Of a stretch of 48,147 nucleotides of DNA, positions 1 to 48,147 are shown piece after piece. The translations under genes and the position numbers were made by a program. The number at the start of each line of letters is the position of its first letter. The first letter of the stretch is position 1. The notes below the pieces were generated by a model that did no database searches, was not told where the DNA came from, and worked only from the letters and a program-made list of their open reading frames with translations. Location: sequence record PV636260.1. One strand, given 5' to 3'. Origin of the DNA: a phage.

Positions 1-127
1 ACGACTGGTCTATTTATAAAAATGTAGACTCTGAGCCGCCAAGCGGTTCCGATTCTTCAGGCGGCAGGATTGATTCAAAATTCAAGGTTGGTGAAGTTGA
101 TAAGTACAGATCCTCTTTCGAATTGCA
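1..127. repeat. 127-bp terminal direct duplication (identical to 48021-48147); circular closure or assembly overlap
   Basis: Positions 1-127 match 48021-48147 base for base; an ORF reads continuously across the junction. Confidence 0.9.
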
Positions 128-8372: not shown

Positions 8373-8420
8373 GATGTTTACCTTTTTGTGCTATTTATCG
8401 GTGAACTCATTATACAGGCG

Positions 8421-8445
8421 AAAAAAAACCCGCGCAAGGCGGGTT
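8421..8445 (-). terminator. intrinsic terminator between gene I and gene J
   Basis: Minus strand AACCCGCCTTGCGCGGGTT followed by T8. Confidence 0.7.
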
Positions 8446-8449
8446 GATT

Positions 8450-9049
8450 TTAACTCATATCCTCAGCGTAAGAACCTGCTGAGAATGTTGCTCCACCTCC
8501 GGCTCGATACCCGTATGGTATAGGGAGAGGATATCCCGCCGCCGTCGTATTGACAGCACCACCGAACGCGTACGAAGGTTTATTCTTGCTTGACTGAACC
8601 TCAAAATTTGCGCCACCTGGCTGAGGTGAAATCATCTGCATCACGCCACCCAGCACCATAGCGCCACCCATCATGAATATAGATGAGGACATTGTACCCA
8701 TTAACGCCAGAGATGCGCCGCCAGTATAGAATGCGGCAACCATTATTGCCGCGCCCAATACAACCTGGAATAGACCGCCGGACTTAGAACCAGTTGGGAT
8801 AGGTACGATTCTTATCTCTTTAGCACACTTGAATTTTTCCTCTTCATGTTGCCCTACGTTAATGCCATCCACGAATATTGCAAACTTGCTACGTGATCCG
8901 ACCTCACTTTGCATATATTCTTTGAATCCATCCACCTGACTGGATAGCGCCCGGATAGCTTCCGGGTAAGAGTCAACGGCGAATTTGTGAAAGACGCCGA
9001 AGCGCCTTCCAAGTGAACCGGATAATTTGATTACTTTTACATCATTCAT
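8450..9049 (-). CDS. tail assembly protein, lambda gpI-like
   Basis: Size, position, Gly/Ala-rich hydrophobic C-terminal half. Confidence 0.7.
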   Translation of the reverse strand: MNDVKVIKLSGSLGRRFGVFHKFAVDSYPEAIRALSSQVDGFKEYMQSEVGSRSKFAIFVDGINVGQHEEEKFKCAKEIRIVPIPTGSKSGGLFQVVLGAAIMVAAFYTGGASLALMGTMSSSIFMMGGAMVLGGVMQMISPQPGGANFEVQSSKNKPSYAFGGAVNTTAAGYPLPIPYGYRAGGGATFSAGSYAEDMS

Positions 9050-10559: not shown

Positions 10560-10597
10560 TTTCTTTTCCTCTTGTTTAGTTGCAACCATTCTACAGC

Positions 10598-10622
10598 TAC
10601 AAAAAAACCCGCGCAAGGCGGG
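10598..10622 (-). terminator. intrinsic terminator between M and L
   Basis: Hairpin CCCGCCTTGCGCGGG + T7 on minus strand; 22 bp identical to the terminator at 8421-8445. Confidence 0.65.
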
Positions 10623-10638
10623 CTTTTGTCATGAAGTG

Positions 10639-38396: not shown

Positions 38397-38508
38397 GCAA
38401 GGGTTGTTGAGTCTGTTGCTCACTTCAATGAGGGCCAGTAACGAAAGCGAGCATAATCTTTGCGACCAGGAGGGGGAGTTACTACTTAACGTAAAAAGGT
38501 ACAAATAA
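38308..38508 (+). CDS. hypothetical protein (uncertain, overlaps the 3' end of the previous gene out of frame)
   Basis: RBS GGAGAG before ATG; ends at the bidirectional terminator. Confidence 0.3.
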   Translation: MRICLANVETLIDRNVELCARLQLTKEEFEQGLLSLLLTSMRASNESEHNLCDQEGELLLNVKRYK

Positions 38509-38509
38509 C

Positions 38510-38535
38510 AAAGGAGGCTAAGCCTCCTTTTTTTC
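38510..38535. terminator. bidirectional intrinsic terminator closing the rightward block and the lysis cassette
   Basis: AGGAGGCTAAGCCTCCT + T7; hairpin spans the spanin stop codon. Confidence 0.75.
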
Positions 38536-38922
38536 GTCCTTACGAAGTGAAAAATAAACCAGCAATAGACCGATAAAAACGAGAATCCAGCCAACGATAG
38601 CATCGTACCAGTTTTCCGGTTTTGTTACTGTGATGCTTTCAGCGTTAACCGTGTTAGCCTTAATGGTTGACACTTCAATTGACTTCTTCAAGGAAGAGTC
38701 AATCTTTCCTACATTGGACTTCTCAACTTTAACATCTCGCTTATCTTCGGATTTTGCGGTTACTCCTGCTAATTGCTTTGTGTTCTCCTCTCCGATTTGT
38801 GCTGTAACTTCCGGTTTAGATCCGATTAAACCGCTCAGGGCAGATGCCGTCGAACAACCGGATAGGGAAATAACGCCAACAGCCACTGCAATCGCAATGC
38901 ACGTTTTCTTCAGTTTCATCAT
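38518..38922 (-). CDS. unimolecular spanin (u-spanin)
   Basis: N-terminal lipoprotein signal with lipobox LSGC and a C-terminal TM helix ([16 protein letters not shown]); the topology described for T1 gp11. Confidence 0.75.
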
Positions 38923-39407
38923 AATTCCTTAACGCAATACGCGTATTCTTCAGCGCGTCGGTTCTTTAGTCCTCTAGACACTTCGCGCTTTTTGGTTTTT
39001 GGGTTGTAGTAGTATACCCATCGCCATAACTGATTGCACGCTTCCTTGTGCTTACTCTGATTTATTAGCTTAAGCATTGTAGAAGATCCGAACGCGCCAG
39101 TACCGACGTTGAAAGTGAAACTGTACAGTGACGCGCGCATCGTTACCGGAATATCAACATTCACCTTTTTGTCAACGTATCGCTGAGCGACTACGATATG
39201 TTTTATCAGCAATGCATCGCATTCTCGCTTAGTGTATTTCTTGCCAGGTATGACGTCCGGCCCGGTTATTCCGCTGCATACTGTAGGGACTCCGGCTATA
39301 TCGTAATACACCTCGTATTCTATCCCTTCGATTCGTTCCAGTAGTGTAGGTGTCAACGTCAAAGCGGCCCCGATCGATGCGCCTATAACGTTATTTTTTA
39401 AGCTCAT
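38919..39407 (-). CDS. SAR-type endolysin, glycoside hydrolase family 24 lysozyme
   Basis: N-terminal weakly hydrophobic Gly/Ala-rich segment; catalytic motif E-G-x(5)-Y-x-D-x(2)-G-x(2)-T-x(3)-G. Confidence 0.75.
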
Positions 39408-39622
39408 TATCTCCCCCTGATCTTAAGCGCCTTATTTAGATCGCCATCGTTTAACGCTTCCTGAATCGCCTTACTATCACGATACTTCCAGTATGCTCCC
39501 CAAGCGCCAAAAAGCAGAAAGCAAATGAATGTAGCGCCAGCAATGTAAAGTTGCCCGGTAGCGGCCCCGACTAATGAAGCGCCGCCAGTGCTGGACGTCG
39601 CAGCTGTTAAAAATTCTTTCAT
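39407..39622 (-). CDS. holin (71 aa, probably pinholin type)
   Basis: Start at ATG 39622 after GGTGAG; two hydrophobic segments and a charged C-terminus; 1-nt overlap with endolysin. Confidence 0.65.
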
Positions 39623-39656
39623 AATCTCACCATATATTTTTTGAACAAGTGAGTCG

Positions 39657-39685
39657 ATTTTAACCTTCAAATTTATTTGATACAA
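39657..39685 (-). promoter_or_regulatory. sigma70-type promoter for the lysis cassette
   Basis: Minus strand TTGTAT - 17 bp - TAAAAT, about 35 nt upstream of the holin ATG. Confidence 0.5.
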
Positions 39686-39694
39686 CGCAAAAAG

Positions 39695-39725
39695 GCCAGC
39701 ATGTAAATCATGCCAGCCTGTAAGG
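39695..39725 (-). terminator. terminator-like imperfect hairpin + T5 between the small gene and holin
   Basis: GGCTGGCATG-N5-CATGCTGGCC then TTTTTG. Confidence 0.4.
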
Positions 39726-39740
39726 TGATGAATGATATTG

Positions 39741-39917
39741 TTAATCTATCGCAATAAATTCCAGGTAGTGACCGTTCAGAGGCGCTTGGATTGCTGAACC
39801 TCGCCCGTCGTAAATCTCAAATAATCCCCCACAGAAATCATAACCAACACTATAGATCTGATTTACACGGAATGGAAGTGTCTTGGAGTCATTTCGGATG
39901 CACTTAACTAGCTTCAT
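39741..39917 (-). CDS. 58-aa hypothetical protein (not in ORF track)
   Basis: RBS AAAGAGG before ATG 39917; preceded by repeated element and hairpin. Confidence 0.45.
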   Translation of the reverse strand: MKLVKCIRNDSKTLPFRVNQIYSVGYDFCGGLFEIYDGRGSAIQAPLNGHYLEFIAID

Positions 39918-39950
39918 GATATAGCCTCTTTGTTTCGATGTGGTTACTAT

Positions 39951-39990
39951 GCCCGAATCCCTTCGGGCGTTTTTATCAATTAGTGCGATC
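39951..39990 (-). promoter_or_regulatory. variant repeated element (GCACTAATTGATAAAAAC) plus hairpin
   Basis: Hairpin GCCCGAA-N4-TTCGGGC followed by TAGTAA. Confidence 0.45.
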
Positions 39991-41131
39991 CTGTCATTTC
40001 TGGACGATAGATGAAGCGACCTATTTCCCCAAACTGCTTATCGTAAACAATTACAGCCGCTTGGCGATATGAGCGCCACCCTCCGCGTGCTGCGTATGCA
40101 TCTTTCGCGCCTAACTGACCGTGCACTTCATCAATACCAAGCGAGTGCTCAGTGATTGTCTGGTGATGCCAGTGACCACTATGAGTATACACATACTTGC
40201 TCTCGCCGAAGTCTGATCGGAAATCTGCGGCCATTGCTGCAAGTCGCGTGTCTGCCTTTTTCATAGTGTGCCCGTGAGTGTATCCCAACAAGGTATTTCC
40301 CCAACGAGTCTTATGCAGAATCATAGGACTAACGTCAACGAATACTCGCGGCTCGTCTTCATAATATGCCGACATTGCAGCGCGTAGCCAAATCATCCCT
40401 GCCTGGTCGTGGTTCCCTTCGATAACCTGGACTTCGACTTCCTTGTGTTTCAGTAGCATTTTGTCGATAGCGCGACGAACAGATCTAATAGCTACATGCA
40501 CCAATTTTGCATATCGTGAATCCTGATCCAGAACGTGACCACTTGCCGGGGTAACAGCATCAAGACCGTCCGAGTGAAGGAAGTCACCGCCGATTAAAAG
40601 AACGGCCTTCTCTGCGTTCGGAGCAATATCGATCGCGTAATTAAAGAAGTCGCTAAGCACTTTTTCCGCTACGTCGGTAGAGTAGTTCTCTCCACATTCA
40701 TGCTTATGAGCAAGCGCGCCAATGTGAAGATCGAATACCGGGTAGAGTGCCAGCTTGCCAATAGCGGTTGTAAGACCTTGCGATGTGAGTAGCTCAGTTG
40801 GCTTTGCTCGCGGCAAGTCTTCACAAAATGCAATGCGTGCAGCTTCCATCATAGCGGCAATCTTCTCACGGTCCTGATCGGTCTTAACCCATCGCACGAC
40901 CTCAGTCCCATCACCGCGAATCATTGTTGATGTGCCTTTTACCATGAAGCCTTCAGGAACGTTTTTAGCAACATGCTCATTGCCGTGAAAGTGGCCTTCT
41001 TTTGCCAATTTTGCGTGTCGAGCCTCAACAGTGCGAATATGCATACCGTACTTTTCCGCGATCTCGCGAAGTGTAAGTCCGTTCATACGTTCTTCGATAA
41101 GTTGCTCGGTAGTGATTTTAGCTTGTGACAT
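39980..41131 (-). CDS. calcineurin-like metallophosphoesterase with N-terminal HTH domain
   Basis: HTH-like LTLREIAEKYGMHIRTVEARHAKL; phosphoesterase motifs GGDFLH and GNHD. Confidence 0.7.
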   Translation of the reverse strand: MSQAKITTEQLIEERMNGLTLREIAEKYGMHIRTVEARHAKLAKEGHFHGNEHVAKNVPEGFMVKGTSTMIRGDGTEVVRWVKTDQDREKIAAMMEAARIAFCEDLPRAKPTELLTSQGLTTAIGKLALYPVFDLHIGALAHKHECGENYSTDVAEKVLSDFFNYAIDIAPNAEKAVLLIGGDFLHSDGLDAVTPASGHVLDQDSRYAKLVHVAIRSVRRAIDKMLLKHKEVEVQVIEGNHDQAGMIWLRAAMSAYYEDEPRVFVDVSPMILHKTRWGNTLLGYTHGHTMKKADTRLAAMAADFRSDFGESKYVYTHSGHWHHQTITEHSLGIDEVHGQLGAKDAYAARGGWRSYRQAAVIVYDKQFGEIGRFIYRPEMTGSH

Positions 41132-41977: not shown

Positions 41978-42219
41978 ACGATTGTATCAGCTTTAAGTTC
42001 TTCCACGTCTTTCTGTATGATTGAAGGCCAATTCTCTATGTATTCATTTTTTATCTCATCGAAAGACATATCAAGAGAACTAGTGAACTCCCACAGATCG
42101 CAACCAATAACATCCTGAGTCAATCCGTTTCGCTCCATAATTTCGCAGCAGGTAGCTCGATAAAGCAGCCATAAACCTTGATCAGTTAACTTAACCGGAA
42201 TCATTTTCTCGTTAATCAT
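41968..42219 (-). CDS. hypothetical protein
   Basis: ATGA coupling with the dam stop; RBS GAGGAAAG. Confidence 0.5.
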   Translation of the reverse strand: MINEKMIPVKLTDQGLWLLYRATCCEIMERNGLTQDVIGCDLWEFTSSLDMSFDEIKNEYIENWPSIIQKDVEELKADTIVQH

Positions 42220-42929
42220 ACTTTCCTCACTTTTGCGCGATTGTTTTTCACCGAAGGGCAAATGCTTGTGATTGGGATATAGTGAGTTTGCTGCGTCTCA
42301 CCCTCTTTAAGTTCGCGCATAATGAAAATTACCGAACCTTTGTTGTTACCGTCAACCGCCTTTCCTGTTTCACCGGATATGAACGCCAGGCGACCTGATC
42401 GTGCATATTCATTGCCGTCAATATCCTCAGTCAAGTCAGCTTCAATCCAGATGATTTCAGCCGCGTGCTGTCGAGCCTCAGTAAACCACGCCGTCGAGTT
42501 ATCGGCAGGTAAAAGAATATCGATCTGGTTGTTGTGCTCCATTTGCTCAATCGCTTTCTTGACGAATATATCAGGTCGACTGTAAGGAGGATTTAACCAT
42601 ACGTGCTTATTTTTACCCCACCAACGTTTTAAGCAGTTTGTTTCCTGGGAATAAAACTTCTCGCAAACTTTATTTTCTTCGCTTGCCGCAGCGTCGAGAT
42701 CATATTTTTCGTAGCGACCCTCAAGGTATGCGATAACCTCGCGTGGGGTTGACCATAAATCACGAACGGCGTCAGGTGTATTGGTTCCCTTGTATCTACG
42801 GCCTGAAATCTCTTTGCAGGTCGGCGTTTTCAGTGCCTGATAATAACAGCCTGATGCTATTGCTTCACGAGTGAATGAGCACCCAGTATCTGCAAAGTCT
42901 ATGGTTTCGATATCATTAAAGTCTTTCAT
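42216..42929 (-). CDS. dam: DNA N6-adenine methyltransferase (Dam-like)
   Basis: Catalytic motif NPPY (WLNPPYS); RBS GAGAGGAA. Confidence 0.8.
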   Translation of the reverse strand: MKDFNDIETIDFADTGCSFTREAIASGCYYQALKTPTCKEISGRRYKGTNTPDAVRDLWSTPREVIAYLEGRYEKYDLDAAASEENKVCEKFYSQETNCLKRWWGKNKHVWLNPPYSRPDIFVKKAIEQMEHNNQIDILLPADNSTAWFTEARQHAAEIIWIEADLTEDIDGNEYARSGRLAFISGETGKAVDGNNKGSVIFIMRELKEGETQQTHYIPITSICPSVKNNRAKVRKV

Positions 42930-43413: not shown

Positions 43414-45422
43414 TCCGGGATATCCTCCATACCGAAGTCTTTGCGTGAGATAATATCTTCTTTCTTCTGGTTGCGACGATGAGTTACGCGTACCGGGTGA
43501 GCGATATGATGTGCGTACTGCACGATCTTGATGGCGTTCTTCATTCCGATAAAGTAGCGACGCATTTTAGGATCTGACACATGAGGAAGTACACCTTTAG
43601 TTTTCCATAGCGTACCGCAAATCTTAGAGTCAGACTCGGGGAAGAATTTTTCATACGCCTTGAACTCATCACCATCGTCGTTAATCAGCATGTATTTGTA
43701 TATTATGCCTTTCTGGTTTTTGGTTAGCGTAACTTCAAAATTCTTTACCTCGTACCAGTCATTCTTAGTGTACGCCTTACCGGACAACTTCAGGTTCGGA
43801 TCGACAAGTGAGACATCACAACAACGACAGACTCGGGCCACAACGTCATTCTCTGCACCGCATCCTTTAACAAGGATTTTTCCGGTGCGCTCGTCAACCT
43901 GGTCCTCACAAATCTGAGAAGTCCAGAAATGATCGCAACGTTCACCATCAATGACATTAACGCATCGTCGAGCATAGAAGCTATTTACGCAACCGCATTT
44001 CGGACATTTTTTCGGATCTTTGCCATTTTCAAAACGCTTTTGGAATTGCGCCTGCTCAAGTATAGGATCGAAATAAAGCTGCCCCAACTCATCCATCGTG
44101 CCTGCGAAATCCCATACAAGATGATCTTGCTTAACCATTCCTTCAGCAACCTGCCAGGATTTAAGAAGTCGCATACCCCTACCCAAAAGCTGAATCAGCA
44201 AGGTAAGAGATCCTATCTTGCGAAGTATTACACTAAAATCCCAATTTGGAACGTTAACGCCAGTAGTTAGCGCCATGACTTGAAAGGTGTATTTAATTTT
44301 CCCGGCCCTCACATCATCAAGAATCTTCTTGCGCGTTTTAGTGTCTGTGTCGCCAGTAATAATTGCATATGTGCTTCCTGGTGGTAGTGCCGCCGCCGCC
44401 TCTTTGCAGTGACGCACACCAGCGCATGTAATCAGAACTGCGTTACGCTCTTCAGCCTTTTTGGCAACCATTTGCATGATTCGCTGAGTAAGAGATTTAT
44501 CATGAAGGATCTCATCTTCCATTGCCTTCATATCTTTCTCTGTAAAGTCCTGTACACCATCCTCGCTTGATGCCTTAAATTTATCAAGATCGTAGTGAAC
44601 TCCGTCCGTAGAACCGAATATAGTCGGAACGACTGAGCCAAACTCAATAAGGTAGTTGGTGTCTATATCAGTAACGCGCTCACGCCAGAATCCTAACGCC
44701 TTTGGATTCTCAACAAGAATAGGAACTACGCCCCTAAATTCAGATCCGGTCATACCAAATATTCTAAGGTCGTGACCGTGAACCTGTTTACAGCGTCGCA
44801 TCATTTCCATGATTACGATCGTGTACTGACTGCGCTTAGTTCCAAGAAGAGGCTTTCCATCATTACCAATCAGAGGAGTATCACCGTCCATGATAATTTT
44901 CCCTTTCTCTCCCCGCATCTGTTCCATCGTTTCCTTGCCTTCGATAGCTTGCGCAAGGTCTTCCCAATCCACCTGGTGACATTCATCGATCCCGATTACG
45001 TGAGGGACAAAATCAGATAACTCATTATTTAGACCATTTGCAACAGTTCCCTCAGATCCAACCACGATAGGGAAGTAGCAAGACTTGATTCCAAGTGACG
45101 CTGAGAATATAGAGTTAGTCACCCCGAAATTGTCGATCTCTTCACTATCCTGATCGACAATCTCACCCTGGCGTGCCAGAACAAGCATTTTCAAGCCCAT
45201 TTTTTGACACTGCTTTGCAACCATAGCAAAAATGATGGTCTTACCCGCAGATACTGACGCTTTAACAAAGAATGGATGCTCGTAATTTGACAGGCGTTTC
45301 GCGATCTCGGCATAAGCAACAACCTGGTACGGATAAGGAACAACCTCACCAACAGTAAATCGCTCCTGAGTTCGCTTTATGTAGTCCTCGCCAAGTAATG
45401 CAATCTGTTTTTTAATGTTCAT
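43410..45422 (-). CDS. SF2 DNA helicase (DEAD/DEAH-like) with C-terminal Cys-rich zinc-binding region
   Basis: Walker A VSAGKT, DEAH-like GIDECHQ, C-terminal CPKCGC...C...C cluster; start ATG 45422 (GTG 45428 possible). Confidence 0.8.
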   Translation of the reverse strand: MNIKKQIALLGEDYIKRTQERFTVGEVVPYPYQVVAYAEIAKRLSNYEHPFFVKASVSAGKTIIFAMVAKQCQKMGLKMLVLARQGEIVDQDSEEIDNFGVTNSIFSASLGIKSCYFPIVVGSEGTVANGLNNELSDFVPHVIGIDECHQVDWEDLAQAIEGKETMEQMRGEKGKIIMDGDTPLIGNDGKPLLGTKRSQYTIVIMEMMRRCKQVHGHDLRIFGMTGSEFRGVVPILVENPKALGFWRERVTDIDTNYLIEFGSVVPTIFGSTDGVHYDLDKFKASSEDGVQDFTEKDMKAMEDEILHDKSLTQRIMQMVAKKAEERNAVLITCAGVRHCKEAAAALPPGSTYAIITGDTDTKTRKKILDDVRAGKIKYTFQVMALTTGVNVPNWDFSVILRKIGSLTLLIQLLGRGMRLLKSWQVAEGMVKQDHLVWDFAGTMDELGQLYFDPILEQAQFQKRFENGKDPKKCPKCGCVNSFYARRCVNVIDGERCDHFWTSQICEDQVDERTGKILVKGCGAENDVVARVCRCCDVSLVDPNLKLSGKAYTKNDWYEVKNFEVTLTKNQKGIIYKYMLINDDGDEFKAYEKFFPESDSKICGTLWKTKGVLPHVSDPKMRRYFIGMKNAIKIVQYAHHIAHPVRVTHRRNQKKEDIISRKDFGMEDIPE

Positions 45423-47071: not shown

Positions 47072-48147
47072 ATGGCTTTATATAGACGCGGTACAGCATC
47101 AATGGATGCAGATGGAACGGTTCGCGGAACCGACACAAAATGGAAGGATCAGCTTGCTCTGATTCGAGTAGGTGCAACTATCGTATTCCTGGAGCAACCA
47201 ATTAAGCTGGCTGTAATCAGCGATATCGTGAGCGACACTGAGTTAAAGGCTATCTCTACGGATGGTCAGACTGCCGCTGACGGTAAGTATGTGATCCTGC
47301 TTAACGATTCACTGACTGTAAACGGCTTAGCTCAAAACGTTGCTGAAACGCTGCGATACTACCAGAGCAAAGAAACTGAGATTGCTGCGGCTCTTGATAT
47401 CATCAATCAGCTTGATATGGATAAACTTGAGCAAATAGTTACTGAGGTGAATAAGGCGAAATCTGATTCTCAAGCTGCGCAAAATCAGGCTGAATTAGCG
47501 CGTGACGCAGCCAACGCTGCACGAGATGAAACTAACTCAATCAAGAACCAGACTCAACAAATTGTTGACGGTGCTGTAGGTAGTATTAATGCAGCAAAGG
47601 ATCAGGCCATTACTGATATAGGATCTAAGGAATCATCTGTCATCACTCACATTGACACTGAAGAGGCGGCAGCGATTCAGGCCATTAATGACGCGAAAGG
47701 TGATTTATCTGGTTACGTTAATGACGCTCAAACGGCAGCACAAACTGCGACCTCTGCAAAAAATGACGCTCAGGTAGCGCGTGACAATGCGGTAAGCGCA
47801 AAAGATGCGGCGGCGGTAAGTGCTCAGGAAGCGAAAGACGCAGCAAATAGCGTTAATGCTGAAAACCTTTTAACTAAGGACGGTAATTTAGCTGGTCTTG
47901 TGGATAAATTAGAATCATGGAAAAACTTGAGGCCAGACGCCCCATTAGAGTTACTTAAAGATCCTGAAGGCAACATGGACGCAACTACTAAGGGTTGGGT
48001 TGAGAAAGGCCTAAAAGTAAACGACTGGTCTATTTATAAAAATGTAGACTCTGAGCCGCCAAGCGGTTCCGATTCTTCAGGCGGCAGGATTGATTCAAAA
48101 TTCAAGGTTGGTGAAGTTGATAAGTACAGATCCTCTTTCGAATTGCA
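47072..48147 (+). CDS. tail fiber protein, N-terminal part (continues through the terminal duplicate into ..899; about 615 aa in total)
   Basis: RBS AAGGAG; Ala/Gln/Asp-rich coiled-coil shaft; reading frame continuous with the ORF ending at 899. Confidence 0.8.
   Translation, partial: MALYRRGTASMDADGTVRGTDTKWKDQLALIRVGATIVFLEQPIKLAVISDIVSDTELKAISTDGQTAADGKYVILLNDSLTVNGLAQNVAETLRYYQSKETEIAAALDIINQLDMDKLEQIVTEVNKAKSDSQAAQNQAELARDAANAARDETNSIKNQTQQIVDGAVGSINAAKDQAITDIGSKESSVITHIDTEEAAAIQAINDAKGDLSGYVNDAQTAAQTATSAKNDAQVARDNAVSAKDAAAVSAQEAKDAANSVNAENLLTKDGNLAGLVDKLESWKNLRPDAPLELLKDPEGNMDATTKGWVEKGLKVNDWSIYKNVDSEPPSGSDSSGGRIDSKFKVGEVDKYRSSFEL

Follow-up and report, generated by a model that had tools for sequence, protein, structure and literature searches.

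Organisation of the lysis locus

The DNA analysed here (the window: 48,147 nucleotides, sequence record PV636260.1) is that of a T1-like phage (Tunavirus, Drexlerviridae), and its top nucleotide matches were all Tunavirus/Drexlerviridae. A nucleotide search with the 1.4-kb region that holds the lysis genes matched 75 phage records, all from Escherichia or Shigella T1-like phages; the top matches ran over the full length at 97.5% identity and were labelled holin, endolysin and either Rz-like spanin or u-spanin. Phage DELF2 matches the right half of the window at 93% identity, and this half is also syntenic with Tunavirus genomes. On the minus strand, from 39622 to 38518, lie three closely packed genes that are orthologues of T1 genes 13, 12 and 11, and whose products are named holin, endolysin and Rz-like spanin in PHROGs. 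The features of the locus, listed from the upstream to the downstream side of the cassette, are as follows.

39917-39741, upstream of the holin gene: SH3-like protein (gp14), 58 aa, with a match to DUF7244 (E=1.4e-28)
39693..39719, minus strand: intrinsic terminator that separates the gp14/SH3-like gene from the holin gene; the stem has 11 bp, 6 of them GC, the loop has 5 nt and the tail is TTTTT
39657..39685, minus strand: candidate sigma-70-like promoter, -35 TTGTAT (39685-39680), 17-nt spacer, -10 TAAAAT (39662-39657)
39626..39631, minus strand: Shine-Dalgarno-like GGTGAG, read from the sequence, 3 nt before the holin ATG
39407..39622, minus strand: holin (predicted pinholin), 71 aa, ATG at 39622 and stop at 39407, orthologue of T1 gp13
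38919..39407, minus strand: GH24 endolysin with a SAR-like N-terminus, 162 aa, orthologue of T1 gp12
38518..38922, minus strand: unimolecular spanin, 134 aa, orthologue of T1 gp11
38510..38530, both strands: bidirectional intrinsic terminator, found by terminator scan, which also serves the convergent gene 10 homologue

The first-pass annotation had proposed a holin, an endolysin and a spanin gene overlapping by 1-4 nt. All three assignments hold, the genes being near-identical to annotated T1 genes far beyond chance, and the overlaps are present on the minus strand: the holin and endolysin genes share 1 nt in the junction TAATG, and the endolysin and spanin genes share 4 nt (ATGA) in the junction TTATGATG (ATGATG/TTATGA). 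The latter overlap is reduced to 1 nt if the second of the two adjacent ATG codons of the spanin gene is used. That codon, at 38919, gives a 133-aa product as annotated in T1, and it is preceded by the ribosome-binding motif AAGGA at a distance of 6 nt, compared with 3 nt for the first ATG. Orthology to T1 at 79-100% identity settles the membership of the cassette. In NCBIfam, no specific family was found for the holin or the spanin, and the lysozyme matches of the endolysin were all below threshold. The gene structure, the orthology and the sequence features of the cassette are established in this analysis; the cassette and its proteins are already known, with identical or near-identical proteins deposited and named.

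The holin

The program-made open reading frame of the holin begins at TTG 39685. This is not a credible start codon, as it is part of the proposed -35 element, and we place the start at ATG 39622. The resulting 71-residue protein is 100% identical to T1 gp13; the two genes are 92% identical in nucleotide sequence and all differences are synonymous. The protein matches PHROG 2877 'holin' (E=1.9e-38); no Pfam holin family was matched, and PHROG 2877 is a holin family in its own right. No dual-start motif was found in the gene.

By hydropathy the protein has two segments, of which residues 4-24 are weakly hydrophobic (76% Gly/Ala/Ser/Thr, mean Kyte-Doolittle about 0.9) and residues 25-45 form a strongly hydrophobic helix, followed by a highly charged C-terminus. 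The two-segment pattern is kept in phages herni, TLS and swan01, whose holins are 55-59% identical to this one. One transmembrane domain is given for the T1-type holin in the T1 GenBank record and in the curated Sin4 record; the TLS paper describes two, and proposes the T1 holin as a class II pinholin (PMC11447400). The holin of T1-family cassettes has been termed a predicted pinholin repeatedly (PMC6139136, PMC11447400, PMC13164509), and the curated annotation of Sin4 gives its three genes the same names as are used here (pinholin, SAR endolysin and u-spanin). Our literature search, which was of partial coverage, found no experiment on the hole size of the T1 holin. Pinholin is thus a reasonable label for this protein, as a prediction both here and in the literature.

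The endolysin

The endolysin and T1 gp12 are 98% identical in amino acid sequence, and their genes are 92% identical. A GH24 catalytic motif behind a signal-anchor-like segment had been claimed for it, and both parts were recovered. The protein matches Pfam PF00959 Phage_lysozyme (GH24) with E=3.3e-33, and carries the catalytic triad E27-8-D36-5-T42, all three residues of which are invariant across four genera. Ahead of the triad, N5-L23 (nt 39395-39339) is a run of 19 consecutive uncharged residues between K4 and E24, and this run aligns to the SAR region of R21 of phage 21. Nine of the 17 residues of V7-L23 (53%) are Gly, Ala, Ser or Thr, and the hydrophobicity is weak (Kyte-Doolittle about 1.1). 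The character of the uncharged stretch is kept across four genera at 61-67% overall identity. It contains a proline, and its predicted membrane insertion energy is unfavourable (Hessa sum +6.8); this is typical of SAR domains but would also fit a segment that does not insert.

The closest relatives of solved structure are the lysozyme of phage 21 (3HDE, 7e-34; 3HDF, 5e-33) and also RrrD of E. coli (4ZPU). Among SAR endolysins, phage 21 R serves as the structural paradigm. On the basis of homology to R21 and of composition, the endolysin of the window is predicted to behave as a SAR endolysin. T1 gp12 has likewise been termed 'a predicted SAR endolysin' (PMC11447400), and within the partial coverage of our literature search no experiment on its export was found.

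The spanin

The spanin is 79% identical to T1 gp11 over its whole length, 100% identical to a protein of phage SH2 and 99% identical to a 'u-spanin' of phage LeonhardEuler; it also matches PHROG 1804 (E=9.1e-48). Its gene is 81% identical to that of T1 in nucleotide sequence, compared with 92% for the holin and endolysin genes, and is therefore the more diverged allele of the three.

The topology of a unimolecular spanin, with a lipoprotein signal at one end and a C-terminal membrane helix at the other, had been proposed in the first-pass annotation and is supported. The N-terminus starts with the positively charged MMKLKK, followed by a hydrophobic core and the lipobox L20-S-G-C23 (nt 38865-38854), with Ser24 at position +2. 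Serine at +2 after the lipobox cysteine is the pattern of outer-membrane sorting. Cys23 is predicted to be the lipidated residue. It is followed by about 80 periplasmic residues without a cysteine and then by a hydrophobic helix at about 106-126 (nt 38607-38545), in which the best 19-mer, 108-126, has a Kyte-Doolittle value of 2.56 and a Hessa sum of -2.7; the charged tail RKDEKKEA comes next. A single-sequence AF2 model has a helix at 102-132, with block-mean pLDDT of 76-85 only over 101-130; its mean pLDDT is 57.5, much of the periplasmic domain is below 50 and the signal peptide is drawn as a helix. In the literature the periplasmic domain of u-spanins is predicted to be beta-rich and not a coiled coil.

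The coding strand of 38500-39700 was searched for a second reading frame with a lipobox, and only that of the spanin was found. An embedded or overlapping o-spanin gene is thereby ruled out, and the cassette hides no two-component spanin.

Gene 11 of T1 complements the lysis defect of lambda Rz/Rz1 and is the prototype u-spanin (PMC6139136). The lipobox of wild-type T1 gp11 is LSGC (PMC6139136), identical to that of the spanin studied here. Among the u-spanin families of Kongari et al., that of T1 was the largest, and its members were accompanied in their cassettes by a pinholin and a SAR endolysin (PMC6139136). Of the description of this protein as a rare u-spanin first described in T1, the reference to T1 stands, since T1 gp11 is the prototype and the phage is T1-like. 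The word rare does not hold for current databases, as tblastn matched the family in 1128 of 50,697 phage records.

Terminators and a candidate promoter

The terminator upstream of the holin gene (39719-39693) was found by terminator scan and folds with -16.9 kcal/mol (z = -2.87). A hairpin with a T-run is present at this position in all ten Drexlerviridae loci compared, with unrelated stem sequences, and a terminator before the holin gene is also annotated in phage Sin4. The terminator at the other end of the cassette (38530-38510) folds with -20.1 kcal/mol on the minus strand (z = -4.3) and with -16.3 kcal/mol on the plus strand. The stop codon TAG of the spanin gene lies inside its hairpin loop, and a terminator downstream of the spanin gene is annotated at the same place in T1 and Sin4.

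A dedicated promoter, TTGTAT-17-TAAAAT, had been claimed for the cassette. The sequence is present, with TAAAAT 34 nt before the holin ATG, and transcription from it would be expected to start near 39650. As a match to the consensus it is at chance level: it agrees at three of six positions in the -35 and five of six in the -10 element (8/12 in total), which is below the threshold of the promoter scan. Equally good promoter-like sites have a density of 2.3 per kb per strand in the window, and between 30 and 48 kb such sites are no commoner than in shuffled sequence. We thus rejected the consensus match alone as evidence for a promoter. At the -35 position the window has TTGTAT and T1 has TTGTGT.

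Comparison of the spacers upstream of the holin gene in eight diverged Drexlerviridae lineages gave a different kind of evidence. The distance from the T-run of the terminator to the holin start codon is 62-78 nt in all eight, and in seven of them a TAnnAT hexamer lies 24-29 nt past the T-run. Shuffled spacers gave a mean of 0.66 for this position, and in a control in which any offset was allowed the highest count in 2000 shuffles was six of eight, against the seven observed. The -35 region is T-rich and not conserved across the lineages. The conserved position of the -10 element thus favours a real promoter with a weak -35 element that abuts the terminator, and the original claim is partly supported, by this positional conservation in other Drexlerviridae and by the place of the site immediately behind a terminator.

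Two further features of the holin leader were tried and set aside. A leader hairpin that hides the ribosome-binding site (CUCAC...GUGAG) is ruled out, as the leader is essentially unstructured, its fold of -3 kcal/mol being weaker than that of 194 of 200 shuffles. A repeated motif common to the holin leader was also sought; the sequence considered, TTGAAGGTTAAAAT, is not well matched anywhere else in the window. A promoter-like element that is repeated in the window consists of AATAGCACnnnTTGcTAAAA followed 22 nt later by TGnTATAGT (TLS-type); it occurs in 24 copies where 2.2 are expected, of which one lies before the gp14 gene and none before the holin gene. A search of the literature found no mapped transcription start sites for T1-like phages.

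Alternative readings

The chief competitor of a dedicated promoter is that the cassette has none of its own and depends on transcription that partly passes the terminator at 39719-39693, having started at the repeat-associated promoter ahead of the gp14/SH3-like gene (39989-39943) or further upstream; TTGTAT-17-TAAAAT would then be fortuitous. The 8/12 match at chance density fits this reading, and so does the placement of the 24-copy AATAGCACnnnTTGcTAAAA/TGnTATAGT element before gp14 and not before the holin gene. In the late region, moreover, terminators run straight into the ribosome-binding site and start codon of the next gene, which leaves no space for a promoter; genes there often stand directly behind terminators, so read-through must be routine in this phage and could also feed the lysis genes. 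Against this, the spacer between terminator and holin gene measures 62-78 nt in all lineages, whereas whole intergenic gaps in the late region are often only about 40-60 nt. The TAnnAT hexamer keeps its position in seven of eight lineages, a count that none of the 2000 any-offset shuffles reached, and the terminator to be read through is strong, with its 11-bp stem and -16.9 kcal/mol. On balance a dedicated promoter for the lysis cassette is somewhat the better supported reading, and we regard supply by read-through alone as rather unlikely. The extension of the former to the family, by which the Drexlerviridae lysis cassette would be driven from a dedicated weak promoter abutting a strong terminator, with a good -10 element, a poor -35 element and no repeat element, is a speculative proposal with a low probability. 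The same terminator bears on whether the lysis module comprises four genes, the SH3-like protein acting as an accessory in lysis, a role put forward for it in KanT1. The match to DUF7244 at E=1.4e-28 speaks for such a role, as does the report that the SH3 gene is present in 188 of 522 Drexlerviridae genomes and always adjoins the lysis module (PMC13164509). However, a strong terminator stands between it and the holin gene, and it has its own promoter element of the repeated type, a class seen before early/middle genes. Its 58-aa translation has no signal sequence, which suggests a cytoplasmic protein that a pinhole would bar from access to the wall before lysis; and the gene is absent in herni, TLS, swan01 and Sin4, all of which have the three-gene cassette. 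A four-gene module is therefore improbable in our view.

As to the class of the lysis proteins, the holin might be of the canonical large-hole type and the endolysin an ordinary cytoplasmic lysozyme, with its hydrophobic stretch a part of the fold. The single transmembrane domain given for the holin in the T1 record would agree with this, as would a stretch in the endolysin that is short, contains a proline and is poorly predicted to insert; nor did the literature yield a direct experiment on gp12 or gp13. But a run of 19 uncharged residues, 53% Gly/Ala/Ser/Thr in its core and flanked by K4 and E24, is kept in four genera and aligns with the SAR domain of phage 21, and specialist annotations and papers class T1-family cassettes as pinholin plus SAR endolysin. 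We consider the large-hole type with a cytoplasmic lysozyme very improbable, and retain the pinholin and SAR endolysin.

Proposed pathway of lysis

We conclude with high confidence that these genes form the lysis cassette of a T1-like siphophage, orthologous to T1 genes 13, 12 and 11, and that it most likely encodes the pinholin/SAR-endolysin/u-spanin pathway. The three genes would be expressed from one transcript bounded by the two intrinsic terminators, which probably begins at the weak sigma-70 promoter abutting the upstream one, and their translation would be coupled through the overlapping stop and start codons. The endolysin would be exported by Sec, and its weakly hydrophobic N-terminus would keep it tethered to the inner membrane, inactive, on the periplasmic side. 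The spanin would be lipidated at Cys23 and, because Ser and not Asp is at +2, sorted to the outer membrane, while its C-terminal helix would remain in the inner membrane. With its lipid anchor in the one and its helix in the other, each molecule would thus cross the periplasm through the peptidoglycan mesh. The small holin would accumulate, trigger and depolarise the membrane, and the endolysin would thereby be released and activated. Degradation of the wall would then allow the spanin to disrupt the outer membrane, the probable mechanism being fusion of the inner and outer membranes. This model has been published for the T1 family, and for T1 gp11 its spanin step is backed by experiments in the literature; what we infer here is that the endolysin behaves as a SAR protein, that the holin is a pinholin and that the promoter is real.

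The cassette follows the textbook T1 route of pinholin, SAR endolysin and u-spanin, and matters little beyond correct annotation. The analysis is useful in that the start codons and the feature map of the three lysis genes are confirmed, that a -10-like element upstream of the holin gene is seen to be positionally conserved across the family, and that the SH3-like gene, a proposed lysis accessory, is found to be set off by a strong terminator and a different promoter-like element. A dedicated weak promoter, if real, would insulate the timing of lysis from the adjacent DNA-metabolism genes, and might perhaps make it depend on a late factor.

Comparison with known systems

The closest characterised system is that of T1 itself (NC_005833, 42878-43982, genes 13, 12 and 11), in which the gene order, the overlaps and the terminators are the same as in the window. 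Both cassettes are flanked by gp14 on the upstream side and by the convergent gene 10 on the downstream side, and the spacers ahead of their holin genes are nearly identical. The two differ in that T1 has the HNH gene 15 upstream of gp14, which is absent in the window, and in the allele of the spanin, which in the window is that of phage SH2. Tunavirus KanT1, described in a 2026 paper, has a DNA repair exonuclease, an SH3-like gene, a pinholin, a SAR endolysin and a u-spanin, without the HNH gene of T1 (PMC13164509); this layout is exactly that of the window.

Beyond Tunavirus, the succession of terminator, 62-78 nt spacer, holin, endolysin, u-spanin and terminator recurs in TLS, herni, swan01, Sin4, Pocis76, phiEB49 and 12469I, as it does in KanT1 (PMC13164509). 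The proteins of the other Drexlerviridae lysis modules are 35-67% identical to those of the window. In most of these modules the -10-like hexamer keeps a constant distance to the upstream terminator, and several lack the upstream SH3-like gene.

The endolysin of the window and R21 of phage 21 are clear homologues (7e-34, alignment of residues 11-139) that share the E-8-D-5-T triad. Both have an uncharged N-terminal anchor, that of the window being 8 residues shorter, and the principle, a tethered enzyme freed by depolarisation, is presumably common to the two. No relationship between the holin and S21 68 is known, and a two-helix topology of the holin is tentative. Phage 21 also differs in having a two-component spanin, whereas that of the window is a single chain. 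The Rz/Rz1 proteins of lambda have the same role as the spanin of the window and are likewise encoded at the last position of the cassette. They too link both membranes, by a lipoprotein anchor in the outer and a helix in the inner one, but do so with two polypeptides, whereas the spanin described here is one polypeptide with no embedded lipobox frame and no periplasmic cysteines.

The gene immediately upstream of the holin

The immediate upstream neighbour of the holin is a short gene on the same strand:

39741-39917, minus strand: DUF7244/SH3-like protein, 58 aa (Pfam E=1.4e-28), orthologue of T1 gp14

This protein has been proposed to be an auxiliary lysis factor (PMC13164509, 2026). In the window, the gene is cut off from the lysis cassette by a strong terminator (39719-39693, minus strand); no signal peptide was seen in our own reading of the 58-aa sequence, and the promoter element found 5′ of the gene is of the repeat type that precedes early and middle genes. 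Taken together, these three features argue against co-expression of the DUF7244/SH3-like gene with the lysis genes. The Tempevirinae and Braunvirinae relatives compared in this region (L004, L005, L006, L009 and L011) have the motif ATTGAC(A/T)TTT in common. It lies about 25-35 nt 5′ of the holin start codon, in the stretch that separates the putative -10 from the holin RBS; the sequence at the equivalent position of the window is CTTGTTCAAAA.

Repeated promoter-like element

The sequence AATAGCACnnnTTGcTAAAA was found 24 times in the window against 2.2 copies expected, including the following sites:

26885, 28180, 28700, 31627, 39989, 41977, 43000 and 45509, minus strand: copies of the repeat
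32852, 33746 and 34210, plus strand: copies of the repeat

The repeat contains an inverted repeat, TAGCA-N5-TGCTA, and precedes early and middle genes at a distance of about 70-75 nt from their start codons. Of 22 close copies, 11 have an extended -10-like TGnTATAGT exactly 22 nt downstream, often with a small GC hairpin between or around the two elements. This layout resembles a class of promoters controlled by an activator or a repressor. The same repeat has already been described in phage TLS (PMC11447400), where it was given no function.

Terminators in the late region

In the structural-gene region (4900-25100, minus strand), many intergenic gaps consist of a terminator hairpin with a T-run, followed almost directly by an RBS and ATG, and from this close spacing transcription of the late genes would appear to pass through a series of terminators. 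Two of these intergenic hairpins have TATAAT or TAGAAT after them:

8408-8452, minus strand: hairpin followed by TATAAT or TAGAAT
10587-10631, minus strand: hairpin followed by TATAAT or TAGAAT

Genome ends and comparison with related phages

The first 127 bases of the window (1-127) are identical to the last (48021-48147). This duplication looks like an overlap introduced by the assembler, the genome being circularly closed or permuted, which would give a unique length of 48,020 bp.

Compared with phage T1 (L002), the spanin gene (38518-38922; T1 43581-43982) has 81% nucleotide and 79% amino-acid identity, whereas the adjacent genes are far less diverged (holin, 92% and 100%; endolysin, 92% and 98%, respectively). 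In Tunavirus the spanin gene circulates as two alleles, one of the SH2/LeonhardEuler type and one of the T1/JMPW2 type. T1 also has an HNH homing endonuclease gene (gene 15) that is absent from the window between the homologues of gp16 (exonuclease) and gp14 (window 39920-39995, compared with T1 42028-42510). Conversely, the window lacks an insertion of about 296 bp that separates the spanin gene from the gene 10 homologue in phages LeonhardEuler, ISF002 and SH6; in LeonhardEuler this insertion contains a 71-aa ORF.
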